Translations under genes and position numbers: made by a program
Assembly (NCBI RefSeq): GCF_054482595.1
Contig: NZ_CM137008.1
DNA length: 64,000 nt
Direction: 5' to 3' (one strand)
Notes under the pieces: generated by a model
Told to the model about the DNA's origin: nothing
The model's input: only the letters and a program-made list of their open reading frames with translations
Database searches by the model: none
Part shown: positions 15,341 through 56,609 of the stretch, one piece after another
How the letters are laid out: every line of letters starts with the position of its first letter
Numbering within the stretch: position 1 is the first letter of the stretch

Positions 15341-17266
15341 TTATTTAGCTTGAACCGTTAATATTTTCCCTCCAGAATATTCTGTAAGATTACTTATTTC
15401 ATTAGCCAAAAGCGCTTTGAACATATTTCGGTCCTGCCCGAAAACAACGCCAGAAAAGAAAGTCCCAAGGTTGCGGTAGCCGCCTACGGTCGGCATACGG
15501 ATAAACAGGTAAGACGTACCCTCGTACGTGCCGGTAAACCAAGCATCATAATCTGTGAGAGATTGGTTATCACAGTGAGCAGCTCTAACTAATTTTGCGC
15601 GGGTAGAGATATTGCTGCCTACTGTATTAAGGTCATACGCACCCGATATAGGATTAAGATCTTCCCCGCTGCGTAATGTATAAATAGTCCCAATGCACCC
15701 TCGTTTCCCATACTGACCACCAACGATACGATAATACGGCCCAGCAGACTGGTCTGGATTCGGCAACGCCATATCCCGACACATAGTGGTACTGAACGTT
15801 GGTATGGTTGCCAGCCCACCAAGATTACCTAATGTAGCGAAAGTTGCAGTTTTCGTGTCGTATGAATTCCTTTGAGGCCACGACGTTTCAAACTTATTGC
15901 TGTACACGATTTCTAACTTAGCACCGTTAGTTAAACGGGCCATCGCGCCATTGAAAGTAGTGGTCGAGCTGGCAATTAGTTGCTTAATACTTACTTTAGC
16001 ATAACCAGATAGGTCAAACATGTAGCTACCTGCAGCCTGCGTTTGATCGTACAGATGTATATTATCTATCTGTAAGTTAGCCCCGGTGCCCTTAATAATC
16101 GTACCGCTGTTCTGACGTGAAGGTTGTTCACAACCTAAAGACGAAATGCTGTACGAGCCTGCGTTAAAAATATACGGAATCCCAGCGCAATCGTCAGCGG
16201 CTAATGGACCAATTTCACAATATGAGCCCGTCAACTCAAAGGCACAGTAGTTTGTTTTAAACGCGTTACATTGGGATACTACGTAGCTTGCCCCCCCATG
16301 TATATGAATACCACCATATATCCCGGTAGCGTCGGAACCTTGGACAACGATTTCGCGGATGGAAACACCAACGAAGGTATTGCCGCCAAAATACATCCCC
16401 CATTTTTGCGCAAGGATAAACAGATCACTAAATTCCTGGTATACGGCGGTATTGGGAGTGTAATACCCGTAACTATCCGTTGTATCGTCCAGGATGCGTA
16501 GTCCACGGACAACATTACCACGTTTACCCTTGTTATAGAAAACAGCGTTAATATCCTGAGTTCCTACCGCCGTTTTGCGAATAATGGATGCACGACCCTC
16601 CCCGACGAATCGGCTACCATTTGGTTGATAGTATTTCTCATTGTAAACATCTTCCAAATCGTAAAGAAGAATAGAGTCCGATATCTCATATTCGCCAGCG
16701 GGCACAAATATAGTTTTTCCCAGTTGCGCGGATACAAGCGATGCTCGATTAAAAGAGAGCGTCCAATCTGGATCTGAATCCAGTTTAAAGTCCAGTACAG
16801 AAATAGTTTCAGAGTTTTTCTGGTGTTGCGTTCGATTTACGGCCCCGTTAAATGGTTGCCGAACAGCTATCTTCGCATCATTAACAATAGTAGGACCATA
16901 GTCTTGCGCCAACTCTGACCTTAGTTGATCAGGGTCATACTTAAGCACATTCGGAAAATAGAACTGCTGTGCACCATATGCATCATAAACAGCCATAGAA
17001 TGGCCTTGCACAGTTACGAACTTGGCAATCTGTCCGTTATATACAGGATACCCGCCAGCGTTAATGATGATTGGCTGTGCAACAGGAACGTGAGAACCGT
17101 CTTCATTCTCTACATAAACCTGAATCTGGTTTTCAGGATTTACCGGGTCAGTGTCAATTTTTCCGATATAAATTTTGCCATTGGCAACCGCTTTAAAAGA
17201 ACGCGCCATAGTGAAGAGTTGCGAAGGCATACTCACTACAACATTGGCATTTATTGAATCTGTCAT
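15341..17266 (-). CDS. P22-type tailspike (641 aa): conserved N-terminal head-binding domain, divergent receptor-binding body
   Basis: N-terminus [62 protein letters not shown]... closely parallels the P22 gp9 head-binding domain (recalled); remainder is beta-helix-like with different sequence. Confidence 0.85.
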
Positions 17267-29970: not shown

Positions 29971-32136
29971 TTATTGAGGTGTCTCGGCTACTCCGCCGGA
30001 GGGGATTTGAACTTGACGCATAAGATTCGCGAAATCCATGCGTTGTGAATGAGTCTGGTCTGCATCTTTAAGAAGCAGCTCAGCGTTAGCACGAGCATCT
30101 TTGCTGCGCTGTTGCTGGAATTGACCTACGAGCTTGAGGTACTCACGCAGTTCTGCCTGCTTGTCGAGGTCCATATTGTTGAAGATTTCCGCAATCTTCG
30201 CGGCGTTGAGTTGGTTTTGGGCTTCAACCTTGGCGGCTTCAACCTGAATCTGCGCCTGTTGGTTCTCTGCCTTGAGCAATTCAGCCTGACCTTGCAGAAG
30301 GATACCCTGCGCCTGAATTTGCTCTGCTGATGGCTGCTGCGGCTGCTGTTGCGCCTGTTGTACCATCTCCATCTCTTCAGGTGTTTCTGGTTTCTTCAGC
30401 CCCATCATCACCAGTTGCTTGTTCGCGTACTCTCGCATCATCTCGACGCCTTTACCGTCAAGCAGCGTGAAGTATTGCAGCATCAGTATCTGGAACTCTG
30501 GAGTACCTTGCGGAACCTTGGTTAGTAATTCCTGAATCTCTGCGCGGTTCTGTTCCTTCATGCTCTGGAAGGATGGTCCAACGTCTGTATAGCACTCATA
30601 GCGACCACGAATGTCGTTGAGTGTGACCACATTGCCGGACTGGTAATCGACAACTTGCGCATAGAGTTGAACGTCTTTCTCGCTTCCATCTTCAAGTGTC
30701 AGCGTTACATGACGAGGAACGTCATAAATATCATTGACCATTGAGGCATAAATCTCGCCATCACGCCGCATTGCGGTAGCCAGGTTATCCTGAAACACGT
30801 ATGTCTCAAGGTCTGCCCGCATGTTCAGTTGATTGACAGTATCGAAAGCGACCTGAGAGTTTGCTGCCTGCGCATCCACGCCAAGACTAGCCACCTCTTT
30901 CACTGCGTTGGTGGCAGCCTCAAGCATGTAAGCGTTGGCTTGCGGCACTTCAGGGTTTTCCATGTAGGAGATTGGACCAATCGGCAGGTCGTTGCCGTTT
31001 TCATCGGTCTTGTTCTGCAAATAGTACGGATAGTCATCATTTCCACCGTACATGTATTCGTAGCCTTCGATTTGCTCAGGGAAGAAGGTCGGTTTCTTCT
31101 TCGGTGAACGAGCAACAATATCGGCGTTGAATGACATGATCATGTTACGAAGGCGTTGACCGTCTTTCGTCAGCCTTACCACTCCTTCGTAGCACTCCTT
31201 GTCACCAGCGAATGACCATTCTCCATACACTGGAACGATTGGAATATGCTCTCCGGCTATCTTCTCGCGGTCTTTCAGTATCTGCGTGCAGGTGATGATC
31301 GACTTATACACACGCCGACGCTTCACCTTGCGCTCTGCTACCTTCATGAATCCACGATTAGCCAGGTCGTCGATGACGTCTTTGATATCCTGCTGGTAAT
31401 AGCTGACCGGCTCACCTGTCAGCGGGTCGCGGTAGATGAAGACCTTCTCTTTCTTCTCTTCTACCTCGTAATACTCAGCGACGTAGACGACATCATTCGA
31501 TACCCACGGAAACAGCCATGTGTCGTTCGGATTCTGGAAAGATGGCAGGGTGTCAGGATCAATACCGTAATCCTCTGCGAACTCTTTCCAGCCATTGCGT
31601 GACAAAGCGTTAATCACCGTGCAGTGCTTAGCGTCGCTCTTATCCATCTGCTTGCTGTTGGCGTCCCATATGACGTGTGAGCAGGCTTCATGGATTGGCA
31701 GGCGTCGGATTACCTGATTGTTGCTTGTTGGATCGTTGTCTTCGTACTGCGTGACCAGACGCCATGCACCAACGCCAGACTCTATCTGCTCACGAACGCC
31801 AACGTTAACAGCAATCTTTGCCGTGTTATGGCGCATATCAGTACGATACATCCCCATCAACACATCGGCTGCATCAGGATTAGCTCCGTCTTTTGGTCTG
31901 AATAGAACGTCGATAGGGTTCCGGCGCATCTCTGCGACCAGTTTCCTGACCACTGGGCGAACAACATCGAATTGTCCGCGATATTGCAGGGTGGTGTAGT
32001 TTGATAGCCAGTCATCCCATTGCGACACTCGGCTAAAAAACAGGTCATTTGTCGCCTCGGTTCTGGCTTCATCGCTCGCCATCCAGTCTGCGTCAAACTT
32101 ACACAGAATGGAATTGAGTCTGTTTTCGTCGGCCAT
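29971..32136 (-). CDS. P22-type portal protein gp1 (721 aa)
   Basis: [45 protein letters not shown]... parallels P22 portal, including Gln-rich C-terminal barrel region. Confidence 0.9.
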
Positions 32137-33636
32137 TTAAGTTCTCCGTGCGATGGGCCTGATTGGGGCTGGTATCTTTTTCTCTTTTGGTTTTTTGATG
32201 TCGCGCATCATTTTGGCGAAGCGGCGCATCATGTATGCATAGCGAACAGCTGAGAGAACGTCGTCGTTAAGCTTGACGATTTTCCCGTTTTCATCACGGT
32301 GATAGAGGCGGAACTCCTCAAAGAATGGCTCACAGGTGTTGAATACTTTGAAGCGACCGTCGAGCATCATGTCTCGCAATTCAGTGATGCCAGGCTCAAC
32401 AGCATTACCGCCATCAGGCCATGTCGCATGCTCCTGCAACATCATAAATCCAGCGTCTGCATACTGCCCTTTGAGCTGCTCACCGCCGCCCTTCTCGTGC
32501 TGGTTTCCGTCATGAGGCCATGCTGTTGGCACTTTATGCGCCCATGATTTAACCGCTCCCCATGCCTGAACGGCTGTTTTTTCTTTCGCCTTCCACACGC
32601 GTGAAACGTAGATTGTGTCTGCGTCCTTATCCCACCAAATCTGAACCTGCGCCTGCGGGTGATCCCATCCGAAATCCATCCCGCCAATTACGTAGAAGTG
32701 ATCAGGACACTCGAACGGCTGACACTTAATCGTCTCTTCCGGTATCTGGAAGATTCGACCACTACCCATCGTAGGAATACCGCGAGCACGCGCCTCTCTC
32801 TCATGCTCAGGATAGGATGCGATGATTTGCTCTTTCTGCTCGTCGGTATAGTGCTCAGCGTCATAGATGGTCATGTTGACCACTTTCTGCGACTTGCTGG
32901 GATTCTTCAGGAACTTGGTAACAACGTCAGACATCCCCATCAGCGGGGTAAATGTCAGAATTGAGAATTGCCCGTATTTGTTGGTACGGGTAAGACCTTC
33001 GCCATAAATGCTGTATGGTGGCTCTTCGTCAAACCACACGCCGTGGATTGTGTCACCCTGCCAGCGAGCACGGCCTTGCGAGTATGGCTTGAAGTAGCAG
33101 ATTGAAATGCCATCTTCAACGCCATCAGCCGTGTGATGCTTAACCAGAAGATGATCAACAAGGTTCGGAAAGAAAGGAGACTTCTTCCAGCTAATGATGT
33201 CTTCTTTCGGTATGGAACCGTAGCCAGGCTCATCATTCTCTTCGATACGACCGCACAGGATGCGTTGAGTCGTTTTGGTTACAGTCTCGTTTGTCTCTCC
33301 ACCAATCCAGAAGACAACAGGCTCATAGAAACGCTTACCTTTCCACTCACCGCCATATTTACCATCAGCAGGATAGCCTTTTGTGCCCGGATAACGACCG
33401 GTAAGGTGAAACGCGACTTCAGCAGCACCAGTAAATGACTTACCAAGCTGGTTACCAGCCATAAAACATCGCTCTGGATAGTCATGCCCGGCGTCGATGA
33501 ACTCACGCTGCTTGCTGTATGGCGTAAATTCATATAGCAGGTGTGTGTTCCGGTAGTTCTCTTCTTCTTCGAGTAGCTCGAGCAACTCGATTTGCTCTTC
33601 GTCGCTCAGGTTATCAAGAATCGCGTCCAGTTCCAC
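32137..33636 (-). CDS. Terminase large subunit, P22 gp2-like (499 aa)
   Basis: 499 aa; ATPase and nuclease domains; position between terS and portal. Confidence 0.88.
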
Positions 33637-41584: not shown

Positions 41585-43021
41585 TCAGAATCCTCCTTTC
41601 TTCTTGGACTGCGGTTCCTCGCGTTCACGTCGGCGCATTTCAGCAGACTGTTGGTCTGTGTCATAAATAGCGCCATTTGCCTGAATGCAATACACCGTGC
41701 CGGTATTGCCATGACGATTGAGACGAAGGATTAGTTCGGTTTCACCAGGCGGAACACTGTCATCAAAAGCACCTTCACGATGGATCCCCACCCAATAATC
41801 GCAATCCTGTTCAATCTGCCCTGTATCGCGCGAGTCACTTGGTAATGGGCGTTTATTGGTTCGGCTTTCCAGTGCGCGGTTAAGCTGCGTCAGAAGCACA
41901 ACAACGCAATCAAGCTCTTTGGCAAGGTTCTTCAGTCCTTTGGTGATCATGCCGTAAGCAAGGTCGTTGCGATCGGCCTTCTCAGCGGTCATTAGTGTCA
42001 GGTAATCGACCAGAATCATGCCAACACATCCTTTTTCTCGCTTGATTCGACGGCTTTCGCTGACGATTTGAGCCAGAGATAATCCCGGCGTGTCGTCGAT
42101 GTAAAGCAGGTCGATTTCACTCAAGCGATTGGCTGTTTCGATCGCCCTGTTGAAGTCACCATCGTAATCACCCTGATAGCCGTCATCAGCGTCATTTGTC
42201 GCCGGAAGGTAAAAAATATTCGGGTTAACACCTGACTTCTGTCCCACCAGTTTTTCCAGTATCTGGTCACCTGGCATTTCAAGGCTGAACATCAGAGCGG
42301 GCTTTTTCTCATGCACTGCGCAGTTGATTGCCATCTGGCTGTATAGCGTCGTTTTCCCCATCTTAGGGCGAGCGCCAATGACAAACAGAGAGCCTTTCAC
42401 CAGACCTTTCGGTGACAGCATCCTGTCCAGCGATGGGATCCCTGTGCTCATTCCCCGTTGTTCGCCTGATGGGTCAAATCGCTTCTCAAGGTCGCTAACC
42501 CAGTCTTCCATGACCTCACCAAATGAACGAAGGCCGCGACGCGATCCGGTTTTTGCATGGTCTGTCAGTTGCGTGAAAATCGACTGAATAGCTTCGTACT
42601 TCTGCGTTGCAGTCATTCCGTTGCGGGAATAGAGCAATTCCGTCGCTTCAGTCATGCGGTTGATGGCGTAGCGTTCCATTGCGGTTTCACGAACCTGCAT
42701 TGCATAGGCAACGATGTTTGCGGCGCTTGGCGTGTTCTTTGCGATCTCAGCGATATAAGCAAAACCGCCAACAGACGCCGTTAACGATTTACGCTCCAGT
42801 TCATCGAAAAGCGTCAGGCCATCTACTGGCTTTTGCTCCCGGTGCATTCTGGTTATTTCTTCGAAAAGGATTTTGTGTGGCCGGCTGTAAAATGAGTCAG
42901 GCTTCAGCATCGCCAGAACTTTCTGGACGCGCTCACTGCTGTCATCATCCAGAAGCAATCCACCAATCACCGCCTGCTCTGCCTCGATGCTATGGGGCGG
43001 CGCATAAAAATTATCGGTCAT
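41585..43021 (-). CDS. Replicative DNA helicase, DnaB-type (P22 gene 12-like, 478 aa)
   Basis: ORF trimmed to MTDNFYAPPHSIEAEQAVIGGLLLD (DnaB N-terminal signature); Walker A GARPKMGKT. Confidence 0.88.
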   Translation of the reverse strand: MTDNFYAPPHSIEAEQAVIGGLLLDDDSSERVQKVLAMLKPDSFYSRPHKILFEEITRMHREQKPVDGLTLFDELERKSLTASVGGFAYIAEIAKNTPSAANIVAYAMQVRETAMERYAINRMTEATELLYSRNGMTATQKYEAIQSIFTQLTDHAKTGSRRGLRSFGEVMEDWVSDLEKRFDPSGEQRGMSTGIPSLDRMLSPKGLVKGSLFVIGARPKMGKTTLYSQMAINCAVHEKKPALMFSLEMPGDQILEKLVGQKSGVNPNIFYLPATNDADDGYQGDYDGDFNRAIETANRLSEIDLLYIDDTPGLSLAQIVSESRRIKREKGCVGMILVDYLTLMTAEKADRNDLAYGMITKGLKNLAKELDCVVVLLTQLNRALESRTNKRPLPSDSRDTGQIEQDCDYWVGIHREGAFDDSVPPGETELILRLNRHGNTGTVYCIQANGAIYDTDQQSAEMRRREREEPQSKKKGGF

Positions 43022-43901
43022 CGTGTTCACCCTCACGAACTTTCAGGTAGGTATTGTCGTTAAGCAGGAAATCAAATCCCTTTTTGTGCCAGACGGTTCC
43101 GCGTTGATGGTTTGGACGCTCTTCGAACATCCATCGGCAATTTTCGCCTACGTAGCTCAAATAATTTCTCCAGTCCTGCATCGTGAACCCATGCCCGTCA
43201 AGCTGGCGGGTTATCACTCCGGCTTTGCGCCAGAACGTTCGGATCTGGTTTTTACGCTTGTCATTCAGTGCGCGGATTCTTGGCGCTTCAGGAAGGATTT
43301 CGTGGTAAGCATCGACAACATCCTGACAGCTGACGGAAGGTTTTTTCTTGTCAGACTTTTTGTCTGCTGTGGCACTCTCTAATACGTCAGTATTAGAGAT
43401 ATTATTTATATTATTGTTTATGGACAACCGTTGGACAACCGTTGGACAATCTCCGCTGAGAGCCGCACCATTACTGGTGTTTGCGTTGGACAACTGTTGG
43501 ACAACCGTTGGACAATTTTTTGCCTGAAAATCGTCATATTTAACGATTGTAAACAGGCTAAATTTCTTCCCCATCGAGCAAATATTAAGCATACCTTTCG
43601 ACTCAAAAGTCCGTAATAAGCTCCGAACTTTGTTGTCGGGGATGAATGTTTCTCTGACCAGCGACGGGCGTCCAGTTATCATCTGACCGCGATCAACAGT
43701 TATCGGACCGATATCCGTATTGACGACAGTAGATTCGTGATTAGCCTTGAGGATTAAGTGAAGCCAAAGATGTACTGCCTGAGAGTCCTTATAGAGCCTG
43801 CTGTCCATAAACTGGCGGTGTATAGAGACATACCCCATACTGGATGCCTCCTGATGTTGTACAGGGTTATGCCTGTAATCAGCTAACTTAACGACGCCCA
43901 T
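43011..43901 (-). CDS. O: Replication initiator O-type protein (296 aa)
   Basis: AGGAG RBS before ATG at 43901; gene contains iterons encoding repeated CPTVVQQLSN/CPTVVQRLS segments. Confidence 0.75.
   Translation of the reverse strand: MGVVKLADYRHNPVQHQEASSMGYVSIHRQFMDSRLYKDSQAVHLWLHLILKANHESTVVNTDIGPITVDRGQMITGRPSLVRETFIPDNKVRSLLRTFESKGMLNICSMGKKFSLFTIVKYDDFQAKNCPTVVQQLSNANTSNGAALSGDCPTVVQRLSINNNINNISNTDVLESATADKKSDKKKPSVSCQDVVDAYHEILPEAPRIRALNDKRKNQIRTFWRKAGVITRQLDGHGFTMQDWRNYLSYVGENCRWMFEERPNHQRGTVWHKKGFDFLLNDNTYLKVREGEHDDR
43419..43527. repeat. Phage origin of replication iterons inside O gene
   Basis: Six copies of CCGTTGGACAA-type units in two clusters (43423..43455 and 43484..43516) followed by an AT-rich stretch. 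Confidence 0.8.
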
Positions 43902-44083
43902 GTTTCACTCCTGCTTTGGCTAGTCTGTAAACACCAACAAGGCGCTCTGCGAACGCCCTGTTATTTGCTGCGGCTACCACTAATCCCTCAGGTGAATCAG
44001 GGTGTCGAATCTCTTCTTTTTCCTGGTATTTCTTACGACGTTTTGTCATAATTACTCCTGTGGATTGATCCAGTCTTTCTACA

Positions 44084-44362
44084 TCAGGCCTCGAAGAATT
44101 CGCCGTTCTTCGGGGCTTTTTCTTTTGTCAGCATTCTGGCTACTTTCTTAGCCAGTTCCGCCAACTCCTCGTCTTCAACACCCCATTCAAGAACAGCCAG
44201 AAGCATTCCCATTTTTGGGATGAAGCTGTCTTTCCATCGCGAAATTTGCGATTCATTAATCCCTAATGCATCAGCAACCTTTCGCTGACCACGTACAGCA
44301 ATTCGATTCAGGATGTTGCTTGTAATTGCATTCGCTTTCTTGCGAGTACTTGTAAGTTGCAT
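44084..44362 (-). CDS. cII: CII-type transcriptional activator (92 aa; start chosen downstream of nutR)
   Basis: ...RKVADALGINESQISRWKDSFIPKMGMLLAVLEWGVEDEELAELAKKVARMLT parallels lambda CII HTH and C-terminal region. Confidence 0.75.
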   Translation of the reverse strand: MQLTSTRKKANAITSNILNRIAVRGQRKVADALGINESQISRWKDSFIPKMGMLLAVLEWGVEDEELAELAKKVARMLTKEKAPKNGEFFEA

Positions 44363-44420
44363 ATGTAAGTATTTCCTTAACAAATAAGAAGTTATGCGCA
44401 TCAACTTATGCGCGTTGTAT

Positions 44421-44464
44421 TCCCGCATTTCGGCGGGAATGAGGACCATGACTGTTAAAGAGCG
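44421..44464 (-). promoter_or_regulatory. nutR (boxA + boxB) between cro and cII
   Basis: minus strand boxA CGCTCTTTAACA (44464..44453) then boxB hairpin TCCCGC-CGAAAT-GCGGGA (44438..44421). Confidence 0.7.
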
Positions 44465-44471
44465 GTGTTAC

Positions 44472-44696
44472 TTATGCTGCCTGATTCGGTTTTGGAAACA
44501 GGTGTGGCAAATCGGGGCGAATTTCGTAAGCCTTGATCTGCCCTCCAGTGGCGTTAACGATGGCGGTAACTTTCTCTGGAGAGACCAACCCGCCTTTCAG
44601 CCATTTGTGTACTGCTGGCTGCGTTACACCACACTTGTCGGCAAGACGCTTTTGGCTACCGACAATTTTCAAGGCTCGTTGAATTACTAAATTCAT
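44472..44696 (-). CDS. cro: Cro-type repressor (74 aa)
   Basis: ORF 44472..44717 trimmed to ATG at 44696 (AAGAGG 7 nt upstream); HTH QKRLADKCGVTQPAVHKWLKG. Confidence 0.75.
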   Translation of the reverse strand: MNLVIQRALKIVGSQKRLADKCGVTQPAVHKWLKGGLVSPEKVTAIVNATGGQIKAYEIRPDLPHLFPKPNQAA

Positions 44697-44717
44697 GAGC
44701 ATACCTCTTGTGGTCAT

Positions 44718-44807
44718 TACTTATAACCAAAGATAACTCAAGTTATAAAAATTAGCAATAACCTTTGTTATTTTACTTTGGATAACCGTAGTTATAGATT
44801 TGTGGGT
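44718..44807. promoter_or_regulatory. OR operators with divergent pR/pRM promoters
   Basis: Repeated imperfect palindromes with ATAAC...GTTAT half-sites (ataactcaagttat, aataacctttgttatt, ataaccgtagttat). Confidence 0.6.
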
Positions 44808-45515
44808 ATGAAAACATTCGCAGAAAGACTAAATGCAGCCATGAGCTCAGCAGGGGTATCACAATCACAGCTTGCTGACATGGTTGGAATATCTCAGCCA
44901 GCCATACAGAAGATGTCGTCCGGTAAAACAAACGGATCTCGCAAGATGGTTGAATTAGCCAATGCTTTAAAAGTGCGTCCTGAATGGCTTAGTTCTGGTA
45001 TTGGTGAAATGAGGGATGGTGCACATGAAGAACCATCCAATGTCCGTGAGTCATCTTTAAAAGCTGTGGTATGGGAAGACATTAAAAGAAACGATGACGA
45101 GTTTGTTGCGTTGCCTCTTCTTAACGTTTCGCTTTCAGCTGGAAGCGGTAGCTGCGAGCTAGAGGAATCATCGGAGTTCTCTTTGGTTTTCAGAAAGCAC
45201 TATCTGAAAAAGATGGGAGTATCTGAAAGATCAGCCAAGCTAGTTAGGGTTGTAGGGCAAAGCATGGAACCAACGCTTCACGATGGCGATGTTGTTGGTG
45301 TTAACACGCAAGATACCACAATCAGAGATGGTAAAACCTACGCTATTTGCCAGTCTGATTTGTTACGAGTAAAAACATTAATCGCCACCCCTACATCGGT
45401 GATAATCAGATCAATAAATCGCGAAGAGTACCCGGATGAAGTAATGGATAGAGATGAATTTCATAAAACCGTAAGGATTATTGGCAGAGTATTCTGGTCG
45501 TCTCATAGTTGGTAA
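44808..45515 (+). CDS. cI: CI-type prophage repressor, HTH + S24 LexA-like autopeptidase domain (235 aa)
   Basis: ORF 44778..45515 trimmed to MKTFAERLNAAMSSAGVSQSQLADMVGISQPAIQKM; C-terminal GQSMEPTL with Ser and later Lys of S24 peptidases. Confidence 0.85.
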   Translation: MKTFAERLNAAMSSAGVSQSQLADMVGISQPAIQKMSSGKTNGSRKMVELANALKVRPEWLSSGIGEMRDGAHEEPSNVRESSLKAVVWEDIKRNDDEFVALPLLNVSLSAGSGSCELEESSEFSLVFRKHYLKKMGVSERSAKLVRVVGQSMEPTLHDGDVVGVNTQDTTIRDGKTYAICQSDLLRVKTLIATPTSVIIRSINREEYPDEVMDRDEFHKTVRIIGRVFWSSHSW

Positions 45516-45757
45516 CCGATAATCAGAAGAAGACTTACGGAAGTGCGGAGGGATAATGGAATTTCTGATAGTTTTTGTTGTTGTTTTGGTCATCATTCTT
45601 TTTGTTTTGCTAAGCATTAGCAAAAAGCTATCTCAAATGATTGAACATAGCTCTAATCGCGCAAAATAGACTGGCCCCCTGAATCTCCAGACAACCAATA
45701 TCACTTATTTAAGTGATAGTCTTAATACTAGTTTTTAGACTAGTCATTGGAGAGCAG

Positions 45758-46123
45758 ATGATTGATGTCTTAGGACCGGAGAAACGCAGACGGCGTACTA
45801 CACAGGAAAAGATCGCTATTGTTCAGCAGAGTTTTGAACCGGGAATGACAGTCTCCCTTGTTGCCCGGCAACACGGTGTGGCAGCCAGCCAGTTATTTCT
45901 CTGGCGCAAGCAATACCAGGAGGGAAGTCTTACTGCTGTGGCCGCAGGAGAACAGGTCGTTCCTGCCTCTGAACTTGCTGCCGCCATGAAGCAGATTAAA
46001 GAACTCCAGCGCCTGCTCGGCAAAAAAACGATGGAAAATGAACTCCTTAAAGAAGCCGTTGAATACGGGCGTGCAAAAAAGTGGATAGCGCACGCGCCCT
46101 TATTGCCCGGGGATGGGGAGTAA
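45758..46123 (+). CDS. insC: IS2 transposase OrfA (InsC, 121 aa)
   Basis: [58 protein letters not shown]3-family HTH OrfA. Confidence 0.9.
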
Positions 46124-46986
46124 GCTTAGTCAGCCGTTGTCTCCGGGTGTCGCGTGCGCAGTTGCACGTCATTCTCAGACGAACCGATGACTGGAAAGAT
46201 GGTCGCCGCAGCCGTCACTCAGATGATACGGATGTGCTTCTCCGTATACACCATGTTATCGGAGAGCTGCCCACATATGGTTATCGTCGGGTATGGGCGC
46301 TGCTTCGCAGACAGGCCGAACTTGATGGTATGCCTGCGATCAATGCCAAACGTATTTACCGGATCATGCGCCAGAATGCGCTGTTGCTTGAGCGAAAACC
46401 CGCTGTACCGCCATCGAAACGGGCACATACCGGCAGAGTGGCTGTGAAAGAAAGTAATCAGCGATGGTGCTCTGACGGGTTCGAGTTCCGCTGTGATAAC
46501 GGAGAAAAACTGCGAGTCACGTTCGCGCTGGACTGCTGTGACCGTGAGGCACTGCACTGGGCGGTCACTACGGGCGGCTTCAACAGTGAAACAGTACAGG
46601 ACGTCATGCTGGGAGCGGTGGAACGCCGTTTCGGCAACGAGCTTCCGGCGTCTCCAGTAGAGTGGCTGACGGATAATGGTTCATGCTACCGGGCTAATGA
46701 AACACGGCAGTTTGCCCGGATGTTGGGGCTTGAACCGAAGAACACGGCGGTGCGGAGTCCGGAGAGTAACGGCATAGCAGAGAGCTTCGTGAAAACGATA
46801 AAGCGTGACTACATCAGTGTCATGCCCAAACCAGACGGGTTAACGGCAGCAAAGAACCTTGCAGAGGCATTCGAGCATTATAACGAATGGCATCCGCATA
46901 GTGCACTGGGTTATCGCTCGCCACGGGAATATCTACGGCAGCAAGCCAGTAATGGGTTAAGTGATAACAGGTGTCTGGAAATATAG
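46081..46986 (+). CDS. insD: IS2 transposase OrfB (InsD, 301 aa; expressed as InsCD by frameshift)
   Basis: DDE integrase-type translation overlapping orfA 3' end in a different frame. Confidence 0.9.
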
Positions 46987-47191
46987 GGGCAAATCCACAA
47001 AAGAAGAAGAGCATCTAATTGATATAAAAGAGATTCTATCTGATATAAAAATCACATTAGATGAAATAAAATACACAACAGATCTAATTGAACAGTATAA
47101 AATACCAACCCCAAACGAGAGAAAAGCAATAGATCAATATCGTATTGACTTAGAAATCGACGAAATGCTAAGCAAAAGAAAAGACTAAAAA

Positions 47192-47220
47192 CACCCGGCC
47201 TCAGCGCCGGGTTTTCTTTT
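47192..47220 (+). terminator. Rho-independent terminator after the IS2-split gene
   Basis: cccggcc tcag cgccggg followed by ttttctttt. Confidence 0.7.
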
Positions 47221-47349
47221 CCTGCCGTTCACCACCCAATCACCCATCATCATCATAGACAAGCATCAAGCCAAAGGTAACACCTTCACCCCGCACGCAA
47301 GCCCTCAAACACCAATCAATCAGCAACATTTACAAAAATAAAATACATT

Positions 47350-47426
47350 TGTTATCCATCACTTATAACTTATTTACCACAAAATATAAGTTAGGTTATT
47401 GACCACACCTATAACCTAAGTTATCT
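47350..47426. promoter_or_regulatory. OL operators / pL region
   Basis: Same half-site family as OR (ataagttaggttat, ataacctaagttat) upstream of nutL and N. Confidence 0.55.
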
Positions 47427-47472
47427 TTAAGCCATCAGCAGGACGCTGGTAGCCAAACGGAACAGATTGGCA

Positions 47473-47514
47473 GGCTCTTTAACATTGATGGGATTGTCCC
47501 GCCGAAATGCGGGA
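47473..47514 (+). promoter_or_regulatory. nutL (boxA + boxB)
   Basis: boxA GGCTCTTTAACA (47473..47484) and boxB TCCCGC-CGAAAT-GCGGGA (47497..47514), identical to nutR boxB. Confidence 0.7.
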
Positions 47515-47708
47515 ACCAAAGAGTAGTTGGCTTTGGGATTGGATGAATGAGCAGGCTGATGCTCGACCAATGTATAAACAGCGCTCATGGCAAGCAGTAA
47601 CCAATCTGCGCCTCAAGACAGCGTCACTGGTAGTGCGGGCGCTCTAACCAGTAAGCCGGAATTCAGCACCGGCCATCCAATCACCAAAGTCAATCATCGG
47701 AGGTCAAC

Positions 47709-48008
47709 ATGACAGTAGTCATTACATATCTGGCTGACGATAACGCCAGAAATCGCCGCAGAGCACGCAGACAGACTCAACGTGAACAGGCAATGCAAGA
47801 GCAGCGACTGGCGCGAAAAATTGCGCTAAAGCTCTCTGGTTGCGTCAGAGCAGATAAAGCAGCATCACTCGGAAGCCTTCGCTGCAAGAAGGCAGAAGAA
47901 GTCGAGCGTAAACAGAACCGTATTTACTACCGCAAGCCACGCAGTGAAATGGGTGTGACTTGTGTTGGTCGCCAGAAAATGAAATTAGGCAGCAAACCAC
48001 TTATTTGA
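47709..48008 (+). CDS. N: Antiterminator N (99 aa)
   Basis: Arg-rich N-terminus (NARNRRRARRQTQREQ) and C-terminus RIYYRKPRSEMGVTCVGRQKMKLGSKPLI paralleling lambda N. Confidence 0.8.
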   Translation: MTVVITYLADDNARNRRRARRQTQREQAMQEQRLARKIALKLSGCVRADKAASLGSLRCKKAEEVERKQNRIYYRKPRSEMGVTCVGRQKMKLGSKPLI

Positions 48009-48016
48009 GGTGAGAT

Positions 48017-48439
48017 GTGGAAGAACAAGCAAACAAGATTCTCGTAGAACTACTGCAAAAAGCCAGCAATGGAATAGACGCGGCTGTTTCATTTAGCCAG
48101 GCACAGATTCCTGATGTTGTTCATCAGTTGCTAATATGGAGTTTTGTCCATAGCGCACTTTTCCAAGTGACTGGGTTGTTGCTTTTAATTGCAGCAATGA
48201 AACTTCCTAGTTTTGCAAGAACGGCAAGAAATAATGGCGAGAGATGGACGTCTTTCGATGGATGTCCAAATGATGGATATTTTATATCTTCGTTTTATTA
48301 CGATATATGCACTGTATTTGCTCCTGTATTTGGCCCAATTATTGGCGTTTTAATTATTGCCTTCAATTTCGAATGGTTGAAGATTTGGCTTGCACCTAAG
48401 TTATTCCTAATTGAATATGCAGCGTCATTGGTTAAGTAA
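48017..48439 (+). CDS. Hypothetical membrane protein (140 aa, GTG start) directly after N
   Basis: GAGG 7 nt upstream of GTG 48017; two or three predicted TM helices. Confidence 0.5.
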   Translation: MEEQANKILVELLQKASNGIDAAVSFSQAQIPDVVHQLLIWSFVHSALFQVTGLLLLIAAMKLPSFARTARNNGERWTSFDGCPNDGYFISSFYYDICTVFAPVFGPIIGVLIIAFNFEWLKIWLAPKLFLIEYAASLVK

Positions 48440-48625
48440 TTTCAGGCCGAATATTCGGCCTTTATTTTTAGCATAAACAACAGAGGTGAATATGAACGCA
48501 GTTGAATTTACAAAATGGATGGCAGAGCAAGATATCACAGGAGCCGACGAAAAGGCTGTGTACTACATGGCTATGCTATGGATTCACAAAGCAAAAGAGG
48601 CTGCAAATGCTCTTGGAGGTGAGTG

Positions 48626-48826: not shown

Positions 48827-48921
48827 GCACTGTGTATTCATTCCAACGAGTGAATACACGGAGCAATGTCGCTCGTAACTAAACAGGAGCCGACTTGTTC
48901 TGATTGTTGGAAATCTTCTTT

Positions 48922-48949
48922 GCCCTCCAGTGTGAGGGCAATTTTTTTT
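48922..48949 (+). terminator. Rho-independent terminator within pL operon (antitermination target)
   Basis: gccctc cagtgt gagggc followed by aattttttttg. Confidence 0.65.
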
Positions 48950-48961
48950 GATGGAGGATAT

Positions 48962-49930
48962 ATGAGTGAAGTAACAGATTTAGTTGTTATTGAAAAAGCA
49001 AATGCAATGACTGTATTTCAGTCTGCCGACCAGATTGAAGAAATTCTCCAAAAGGTTGAACGTGAAGTTATGTCATTTGTGCCTGATATCACAACGGCAA
49101 AGGGCAGAAAGGAGATCGCTTCTCTGGCGTATAAAGTTGCGCAGACGAAAACATATCTCGATGGTCTTGGCAAAGACCTTGTTGCTGAACTGAAGGAAAT
49201 TCCAAAGCTAATTGATGCCAACCGCAAGACAGTGCGCGATCGCCTTGATGAACTGAAAGCCAAGGCGCGCCAGCCTCTTACTGATTATGAGGAAGAACAG
49301 GCGCGGATTAAAGCCGAAGAAGAAGCTAAGGCAGCAGCTGAAGCTCTCGCAAAGCAAATTGAGTCTGACCATGAAATAGCGATTTTGATGGATCGCGAAT
49401 TTGACCGCCAAAGAGAAGAGGCAAGACTCAAAGCGGAGCAGGAAAAGCGAGAGCATGAAGAACGATTAAAAAGAGAAGCTGAAGAGAAAGCCAGAGCTGA
49501 AGCCGAAGCAAAGGCAAAAGCCGAAATTGAAGCAGCAGCAAGACGAGAAGCAGAGGCTAAGGCCGCAGCGGAACGTGCAGAGCGTGAACGCATTGAAGCC
49601 GAGCAACGAGCACAGCGCGAAGCAAAAGAGGCAGCAGAACGAGCTGAAAGAGAAAAGCATGCGGCAATTGAAGCAGAACGCCGTAAAGCACAGGAGGAGG
49701 CAGAACGAATCCGGCGCGAGGCTGAAGCAAAAGAGCAAGCCAGAATAGCAGAAGAAAAAAGAATCAAGGACGAAGAAGAGCGTAGAGCAAAGGATAAAGC
49801 TCACCGGAAAGAAGTAAATAACAAAATACTTGCTGACCTTATCAAGGTTGGCGCATCAGAAGATGTTGCTAAAAATATCATAACAGCCATCGTAAAAGGC
49901 GAAGTATTCGCAACAAAAATAACCTACTAA
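48962..49930 (+). CDS. Hypothetical protein with long Ala/Glu/Lys/Arg coiled coil (TolA-like central region, 322 aa)
   Basis: GGAGG RBS then ATG 48962; about 150 residues of EAKAKAE/AERAERE-type repeats. Confidence 0.55.
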   Translation: MSEVTDLVVIEKANAMTVFQSADQIEEILQKVEREVMSFVPDITTAKGRKEIASLAYKVAQTKTYLDGLGKDLVAELKEIPKLIDANRKTVRDRLDELKAKARQPLTDYEEEQARIKAEEEAKAAAEALAKQIESDHEIAILMDREFDRQREEARLKAEQEKREHEERLKREAEEKARAEAEAKAKAEIEAAARREAEAKAAAERAERERIEAEQRAQREAKEAAERAEREKHAAIEAERRKAQEEAERIRREAEAKEQARIAEEKRIKDEEERRAKDKAHRKEVNNKILADLIKVGASEDVAKNIITAIVKGEVFATKITY

Positions 49931-55342: not shown

Positions 55343-55561
55343 ATGTACTTGACACTTCAGGAGTGGAACGCACGCCAGCGACGCCCAAGAAGCCTTGAAA
55401 CAGTTCGTCGATGGGTACGCGAGTGCAGGATATTCCCTCCTCCGGTTAAGGATGGAAGAGAGTATCTGTTCCACGAATCAGCGGTAAAGGTTGACTTAAA
55501 TCGACCAGTAACAGGTAGCCTTTTGAAGAGGATCAGAAATGGGAAGAAGGCGAAGTCATGA
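55343..55561 (+). CDS. xis: Excisionase Xis, lambda-type (72 aa)
   Basis: MYLTLQEWNARQRRPRSLETVRRWVRECRIFPPPVKDGREYLFHESAVKVDLNRP matches lambda Xis as recalled. Confidence 0.93.
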   Translation: MYLTLQEWNARQRRPRSLETVRRWVRECRIFPPPVKDGREYLFHESAVKVDLNRPVTGSLLKRIRNGKKAKS

Positions 55562-56609
55562 GCGCCGGGATTTACCCCCTAACCTTTATATAAGAAACAA
55601 TGGATATTACTGCTACAGGGACCCAAGGACGGGTAAAGAGTTTGGATTAGGCAGAGACAGGCGAATCGCAATCACTGAAGCCATACAGGCCAACATTGAG
55701 TTATTTTCAGGACACAAACACAAGCCTCTGACAGCGAGAATCAACAGTGATAATTCCGTTACGTTACATTCATGGCTTGATCGCTACGAAAAAATCCTGG
55801 CCAGCAGAGGAATCAAGCAGAAGACACTCATAAATTACATGAGCAAAATTAAAGCAATACGGGGGGGGCTGCCTGATGCTCCACTTGAAGACATCACCAC
55901 AAAAGAAATTGCGGCAATGCTCAATGGATACATAGACGAGGGCAAGGCGGCGTCAGCCAAGTTAATCAGATCAACACTGAGCGATGCATTCCGAGAGGCA
56001 ATAGCTGAAGGCCATATAACAACAAACCCTGTCGCTGCCACTCGCGCAGCAAAATCAGAGGTAAGGAGATCAAGACTTACGGCTGACGAATACCTGAAAA
56101 TTTATCAAGCAGCAGAATCATCACCATGTTGGCTCAGACTTGCAATGGAACTGGCTGTTGTTACCGGGCAACGAGTTGGTGATTTATGCGAAATGAAGTG
56201 GTCTGATATCGTAGATGGATATCTTTATGTCGAGCAAAGCAAAACAGGCGTAAAAATTGCCATCCCAACAACATTGCATGTTGATGCTCTCGGGATATCA
56301 ATGAAGGAAACACTCGATAAATGCAAAGAGATTCTTGGCGGAGAAACCATAATTGCATCTACTCGTCGTGAACCGCTTTCATCCGGCACAGTATCAAGGT
56401 ATTTTATGCGCGCACGAAAAGCATCAGGTCTTTCCTTCGAAGGGGATCCGCCTACCTTTCACGAGTTGCGCAGTTTGTCTGCAAGACTCTATGAGAAGCA
56501 GATAAGCGATAAGTTTGCTCAACATCTTCTCGGGCATAAGTCGGACACCATGGCATCACAGTATCGTGATGACAGAGGCAGGGAGTGGGACAAAATTGAA
56601 ATCAAATAA
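55539..56609 (+). CDS. int: Integrase Int, lambda-type tyrosine recombinase (356 aa)
   Basis: MGRRRSHERRDLPPNLYIRNNGYYCYRDPRTGKEFGLGRDRRIAITEAIQ... matches lambda Int as recalled; overlaps xis end. Confidence 0.95.
   Translation: MGRRRSHERRDLPPNLYIRNNGYYCYRDPRTGKEFGLGRDRRIAITEAIQANIELFSGHKHKPLTARINSDNSVTLHSWLDRYEKILASRGIKQKTLINYMSKIKAIRGGLPDAPLEDITTKEIAAMLNGYIDEGKAASAKLIRSTLSDAFREAIAEGHITTNPVAATRAAKSEVRRSRLTADEYLKIYQAAESSPCWLRLAMELAVVTGQRVGDLCEMKWSDIVDGYLYVEQSKTGVKIAIPTTLHVDALGISMKETLDKCKEILGGETIIASTRREPLSSGTVSRYFMRARKASGLSFEGDPPTFHELRSLSARLYEKQISDKFAQHLLGHKSDTMASQYRDDRGREWDKIEIK

Follow-up and report, generated by a model that had tools for sequence, protein, structure and literature searches.

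Which gene lies behind the repressor of a P22-like lambdoid prophage of Escherichia coli, and what has the arrival of an insertion sequence done to it? The question is raised by a stretch of 64,000 nucleotides (nt) from contig NZ_CM137008.1 of the NCBI RefSeq assembly GCF_054482595.1, here called the window, in which a copy of the insertion sequence IS2 lies shortly downstream of a cI-type repressor gene. Our analysis leads, with very little doubt, to an IS2 knock-out of a conserved gene of the repressor operon, whose product is a protein of 98 amino acids (aa).

IS2 lies within a small gene downstream of the repressor

The locus comprises the following features:
44808..45515, + strand: cI-type prophage repressor, 235 aa, with helix-turn-helix (HTH) and S24 peptidase domain (open reading frame, ORF)
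45547..45551, + strand: Shine-Dalgarno sequence GGAGG of the small gene, within the 40-nt spacer after cI (read from the sequence)
45556 (ATG)..45666, + strand: 5' fragment of the small gene, codons 1-37, transmembrane (TM) helix and short linker (ORF, stop TAG at 45667-45669)
45662..45666: left target-site duplication CAAAA
45667..46997, + strand: IS2 isoform, 1331 bp, transposase genes co-directional with cI (nucleotide identity and NCBIfam models)
46998..47002: right target-site duplication CAAAA
47003..47188, + strand: 3' fragment of the small gene, codons 38-98 and stop, conserved two-helix domain
47193..47222, + strand: intrinsic terminator of the putative operon of cI and the small gene (cI-orf98), with a 7-bp GC-rich hairpin at 47193-47212 and a U-run (-13.7 kcal/mol)

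The original prediction described a 1331-bp IS2 with a CAAAA duplication, 151 bp downstream of cI. The coordinates agree with this description, the element starting 151 bp past the cI stop codon, and so does an alignment with the copy annotated as 'insertion sequence:IS2A' in E. coli K-12 MG1655, which is of equal length and differs without gaps at 59 of 1331 positions (95.6% identity). A target duplication of 5 bp is the expected size for IS2. Removal of IS2 and of one CAAAA yields a 297-nt ORF for 98 aa, and the restored frame ends at a terminator as had been foreseen, the intrinsic terminator following 4 nt past the ORF.

We then asked for uninterrupted versions of the site. Both flanks were joined to give an empty-site query of 565 nt, which was searched in 5,426 complete E. 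coli genomes. The joined flanks were matched over at least 80% of their length in 98 of these genomes, as one uninterrupted piece among the matches listed, and the search was repeated with a query consisting of the gene only. All 565 positions are identical in E. coli E7476 and MS20674, and the empty site of E7476 holds a single CAAAA. Over 8.5 kb the E7476 prophage is 99.2-99.5% identical to the window; the alignment is continuous in E7476 and breaks in the window exactly between 45666 and 46998. Directly after the repressor, both O26:H11 11368 and E7476 are annotated with a single 297-nt coding sequence for a 'hypothetical protein' (WP_000394868.1, WP_033558356.1). The proposal that IS2 splits one gene is thus borne out by the uninterrupted sites and the E7476 alignment: relatives carry one coding sequence at this position rather than two independent genes, and other prophages keep the frame even where identity falls to about 40%. 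When the reconstructed protein was looked up, it proved to be an exact match to a widespread protein, present verbatim on 739 public contigs.

The interrupted gene belongs to a small conserved family

The reconstructed protein is matched end to end by PHROG 18389 (E = 5.2e-62, residues 1-98 against model positions 1-98 of 98), which is also the sole PHROG match of ten distant homologues. It shares 98-100% identity with WP_000394868.1 and WP_033558356.1, which are encoded by lambdoid prophages, among them those of the Stx1 type. When 1.8 billion representative proteins were searched exhaustively with a profile, only 14 clusters at 50% identity came up, all of 94-126 aa, and tblastn against phage and plasmid collections gave just two matches, in a single Stx1a phage and a single large E. 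coli replicon.

The ORF is short, AT-rich and without a known domain, as might be expected if it were non-functional, or if it consisted of two small genes, with IS2 inserted into non-coding or decaying DNA. The conservation of the family makes such a reading very improbable. Besides the full-length PHROG match, the length and the motif of the family are kept down to 26-40% identity, and every uninterrupted relative has one continuous coding sequence. In addition, comparison with the Citrobacter freundii homologue (77% identity) gave dN = 0.128 and dS = 0.83, that is, a dN/dS of 0.15. Judged by this substitution pattern, the 98-aa ORF is a real gene under purifying selection.

The family alignment begins with a hydrophobic helix at the N-terminus; a variable linker connects it to the conserved C-terminal part, which bears the motif IKYTTDxIEKYKLP..ER..ID...E. 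AlphaFold2 predicted three helices (residues 2-38, 45-68 and 74-97; mean pLDDT 81, pTM 0.29). No lysine or arginine precedes the TM helix in any of the 17 members (17/17), and one to four of them lie within the 15 residues after it. Because of the positive-inside rule as applied to this distribution, we read the topology as N-out/C-in: the product is probably a single-pass inner-membrane protein with a short, 2-residue N-terminus in the periplasm and an acidic two-helix domain in the cytoplasm.

Consequences of the insertion

The first triplet of IS2 is an in-frame TAG (45667-45669), which ends the ORF after 37 codons (MEFLIVFVVVLVIILFVLLSISKKLSQMIEHSSNRAK). The resulting stub retains the membrane helix; most of the invariant positions are lost with residues 38-98. 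Since the 37-aa stub that remains lacks the conserved domain, the 98-aa gene is almost certainly inactivated.

The 3' fragment lacks its own ATG. From a GTG at 46961, in the right inverted repeat of IS2, an ORF of 75 aa (46961-47188, + strand) reads into it in frame; NCBI annotates the identical product as WP_458928476.1. This fused ORF has no obvious ribosome-binding site, and its product would be without the membrane anchor. The repressor gene itself is intact and its transcript would now enter IS2; read-through towards the early left promoter (PL) and the antiterminator gene N is unlikely because the native terminator remains downstream of IS2.

Recency and distribution of the insertion

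The IS2 junction was absent from the 5,426 complete E. coli genomes, the GTDB representative genomes, the JGI metagenomes and IMG/VR. Because both flanks are identical to the intact allele and the junction is absent from the searched collections, the insertion looks recent and private to the strain.

Breaks at the same position were observed elsewhere. Three draft E. coli assemblies (GCA_011942965.1, GCA_012914465.1 and GCA_012024725.1) carry an O26/Stx1-type allele, in which residue 42 is Ile in place of Leu and the genes downstream differ. Contigs of these drafts start exactly at CAAAAGAAG in two assemblies and one base earlier in the other. One metagenome scaffold (L011, position 234) diverges from the window at exactly 46998, into unrelated sequence. 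To judge from these ends, a repeat element may have entered the same 5-bp site more than once, or an interrupted segment may have been spread by recombination.

That the three drafts and the scaffold all break at or within 1 nt of the same CAAAA would also fit an insertion favoured by selection, in a host where the uninterrupted product carries a cost, is slightly toxic or keeps out a phage or element that would be of use; the site may then have been hit repeatedly. However, the evidence from contig ends is indirect, and no inserted element was seen in those assemblies. Among the matches listed, none of the 98 gene-carrying complete genomes is interrupted, and no second instance of the exact IS2 junction turned up in the searched collections; selection is not required to explain one event. 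We therefore regard a selected insertion as improbable, and favour a recent loss in this strain.

Position behind the repressor

The control region around the repressor and the small gene contains the following features:
44733..44795: right operator region (OR), three operator-like palindromes ATAAC-N4-GTTAT between the cro-like and cI-like genes (exact matches starting at 44733, 44758 and 44782, spacing 24-25 bp)
47386-47399 and 47411-47424: operators of the left operator region (OL), overlapping the PL-like promoter
47399-47427, + strand: PL-like promoter TTGACC-17-TATCTT
47709..48008, + strand: N-like antiterminator gene, first of the PL operon (phrog_271 'anti-termination protein N-like', E = 1.6e-36)

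The interrupted gene had been proposed to occupy the position of lambda rexAB, and this placement holds: it lies between cI and OL/PL-N, with operator palindromes on both sides. The palindrome ATAAC-N4-GTTAT occurs six times in the window, versus 1.6 occurrences expected by chance, and five of the six copies are located at OR or OL. A third palindrome at OL was not found with one mismatch allowed. The five copies are presumably the operators of the window's immunity type.

The order cII, cro, cI-type repressor, small gene, N is shared by the window, the Citrobacter freundii chromosome and three more lineages. Across these loci, which carry at least four unrelated repressor types, the small gene begins 12-40 nt past the repressor on the same strand, and in four of the five lineages (loci L001, L003, L005 and L008) an intrinsic terminator lies right behind it. 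The repressor counterpart in relatives is annotated as an XRE family transcriptional regulator (708 nt). The window repressor gave weak matches to HTH-repressor and LexA/S24 models; HTH_3 and Peptidase_S24 are carried by the equivalent repressor gene of homologous loci. Co-transcription of the small gene with cI is probable and well supported by the anatomy of the locus, because the gap is short and on the same strand, a Shine-Dalgarno sequence is present, the spacer contains no terminator-like site and a terminator follows the small gene.

Between these loci the repressors share 20-56% identity and the small proteins 38-78%. Because the repressors diverge while the small proteins stay this similar, the comparison shows, at the level of sequence, a cassette exchanged independently of immunity specificity.

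The sole candidate for an internal promoter of the small gene was TTGGCA-17-CATAGT (45481-45509, + strand, 9 of 12 positions matching). We did not adopt it because promoter-like sites of the region are no commoner than in shuffled sequence. The site sits within the 3' end of cI, 47 nt before the ATG of the small gene, and recalls lambda's internal rexB promoter. The small RNA svsR of prophage NC-SV was dropped as well, as it lies within the 3' end of cI and outside the small gene. In Citrobacter-type loci, an ORF of 68-74 aa is found on the opposite strand between the small-gene terminator and N (L003, 6324-6530, - strand; L004, 4383-4607, - strand).

A candidate role in protection of the lysogen

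The interval between cI and N is a mosaic diversity hotspot, which holds rexAB in lambda and bstA in the P22-like Salmonella prophage BTP1 (Owen et al., PMC8585504). Both are presumably driven by the strong repressor promoter, and BstA is highly expressed in lysogens, with a conserved 'behind the repressor' architecture (PMC8585504). Like lambda rexA-rexB, a pair of abortive-infection genes that share the transcript of cI, the small gene is located downstream of and co-directional with the repressor, in the immunity region and upstream of OL/PL-N. RexB is a membrane protein, and the 98-aa protein is predicted to be membrane-associated as well. In contrast, lambda Rex combines a sensor with a multi-pass membrane protein, whereas here there is one single-pass protein of 98 aa and no second operon gene. 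Similarity to RexA or RexB was not found, and PADLOC returned no Rex model, only a weak ZorB/MotB-like match to the TM helix (E = 0.009).

The resemblance to BTP1 bstA is again one of position, as each gene directly follows cI in a P22-like prophage and has its own Rho-independent terminator. BstA, however, is much larger; it is a cytoplasmic protein of abortive infection that associates with DNA, and its self-immunity element, aba, is DNA-based. The 98-aa protein showed no homology to BstA. Small inner-membrane exclusion proteins produced by lysogens or during infection include SieA of P22, Imm of T4 and the lactococcal Sie2009, the latter being encoded in the lysogeny module beside the repressor. 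The 98-aa protein is probably likewise a small prophage protein of the inner membrane. It differs in that the conserved domain of its family is probably cytoplasmic, which is a less obvious fit to a block of DNA entry. The reconstructed protein is itself a full-length member of PHROG 18389; in the window its gene is interrupted.

Because the slot from cI to N hosts lambda rexAB and BTP1 bstA, we suggest, in line with the candidate exclusion function named in the original prediction, that the protein may protect the lysogen against other phages, by inner-membrane superinfection exclusion or by abortive infection. We rank this as its single most likely function, with a confidence slightly below even. 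The account that we propose runs as follows. A P22-like lambdoid E. coli prophage carries a probable two-gene lysogeny operon, made up of the cI-type repressor and the 98-aa gene, with a terminator just before OL/PL. An IS2 isoform transposed into codon 37-38 with the usual 5-bp duplication, severing the conserved domain from the start codon and the membrane anchor, and leaving at most a 37-aa membrane stub to be made. The outcome would be a recent, strain-specific loss of function that left the repressor and the terminator untouched. Taken as a whole, an IS2 loss of function in a membrane gene of the cI operon with a role in lysogen protection is the best explanation we can offer, at somewhat less than an even weight. 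It is a more doubtful suggestion that PHROG 18389 may represent an unrecognised single-gene prophage defence, with N-out/C-in topology and expression from the repressor promoter, which excludes or aborts superinfecting phages. With the two parts taken together at that same doubtful level, the cassette would be mobile among lambdoid immunity regions, those of Stx1-converting prophages of O26 Shiga toxin-producing E. coli (STEC) included.

Several results weigh against a protective role or against the account as a whole. Searches of the family, the sequence and the fold gave no direct evidence for any function. Neither the single sequence nor any member of the 17-sequence alignment had a significant match in Pfam, and nothing significant was obtained with NCBIfam or PADLOC; the marginal, composition-driven matches (DUF5385, MscL, ZorB/MotB and DUF4446) are due to the hydrophobic helix and the coiled segments. 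A profile search of the PDB retrieved only designed coiled coils, sodium-channel segments and weak MotB TM helices, and Foldseek with the AlphaFold2 model gave zero matches in PDB and AFDB50 and one in BFVD at E = 9.7. We found no paper on the RefSeq accessions or on PHROG 18389, and the wider literature searches yielded nothing beyond general work on the hotspot between cI and N. The distant homologues L010 and L017, on short contigs, do not visibly adjoin a repressor, and the claim of synteny is therefore limited to the enterobacterial lambdoid subset; the contig context of a further distant homologue, L018, was uninformative. Finally, the 37-aa stub or the 75-aa fused ORF could retain or gain some activity.

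We also considered a stator of the MotB/ZorB type. Its matches are of marginal strength (E = 0.009 to 0.5) and limited to the hydrophobic helix and the coiled segment. We rejected the candidate for want of any acidic residue, and so of a protonatable Asp, in the TM helix FLIVFVVVLVIILFVLL.

The same IS2 knock-out could instead have hit a protein that serves lysogeny control of the prophage or the physiology of the host, rather than acting against phages. Such a protein could be, for example, a membrane-anchored modulator of a host inner-membrane protease or transporter, and thereby influence the stability of the repressor or of CII, induction, or the fitness of the host. The protein is always found with the cI/cro/cII switch region, its conserved domain is probably cytoplasmic, where switch proteins and host factors work, and no defence-system model matches it. 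But the gene swaps among unrelated repressors, as the diverging identities of repressors and small proteins indicate, and it is missing from most lambdoid immunity regions, being present in about 2% of complete E. coli genomes. Free swapping and rarity therefore argue for dispensable cargo and not for a component of the switch. Moreover, the characterised genes of this slot are defence genes. We thus rank lysogeny control or host physiology next after protection of the lysogen, and consider it unlikely.

The IS2 copy

Most E. coli genomes contain IS2, which often inserts into prophages. The copy in the window contains the following features:
45758..46123, + strand: orfA (insC/TnpA), 121 aa (NF006928 'IS2 repressor TnpA', 276 bits versus a cut-off of 229)
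46081..46986, + strand: orfB (insD/TnpB, DDE transposase domain), 301 aa (NF006918 'IS2 transposase TnpB', 710 bits versus a cut-off of 597)
46075..46081, + strand: A6G slippery motif in the orfA/orfB overlap, putative -1 frameshift site (read from the sequence)

On the basis of established knowledge of the IS3 family, we take the A6G motif at 46075 to be the programmed -1 frameshift site. A gapped alignment of the two ends of the element revealed imperfect inverted repeats of about 41/42 bp with the common core CCCC..TCCAGACA..ATCACTT. Many E. coli chromosomes and plasmids carry copies that are 100% identical to this IS2. The element differs from the K-12 copy at 59 positions, yet its identical copies are found in many E. 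coli genomes of clinical or animal origin, and it seems to be a distinct IS2 isoform in wide circulation.

The surrounding prophage

The P22-like character of the prophage is apparent from the following genes:
15341-17266: tailspike
29971-32136: portal
32137-33636: terminase
55539-56609: integrase

The prophage also encodes a DnaB-type helicase (41585-43036), and a large TolA-like repeat protein (48866-49930) lies within the PL operon. There are no tRNA genes within the 64-kb window, and an Rfam scan of positions 43500-48500 gave zero matches.

Significance

The insertion itself is an ordinary IS event, part of the routine wear of genomes, and its value lies in pointing to the gene that it broke. 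This gene represents a small, conserved and uncharacterised family, which occupies the slot of rexAB and bstA, in prophages among which are Stx1-converting phages of O26 STEC, and is probably carried on the most strongly expressed transcript of the lysogen. The natural IS2 knock-out and the near-isogenic intact allele of E7476 provide a ready comparison. If the function is indeed defence or exclusion, the family would add a very compact, membrane-anchored system of one protein to the defence repertoire of prophages, and it would help to explain which phages superinfect STEC lysogens.

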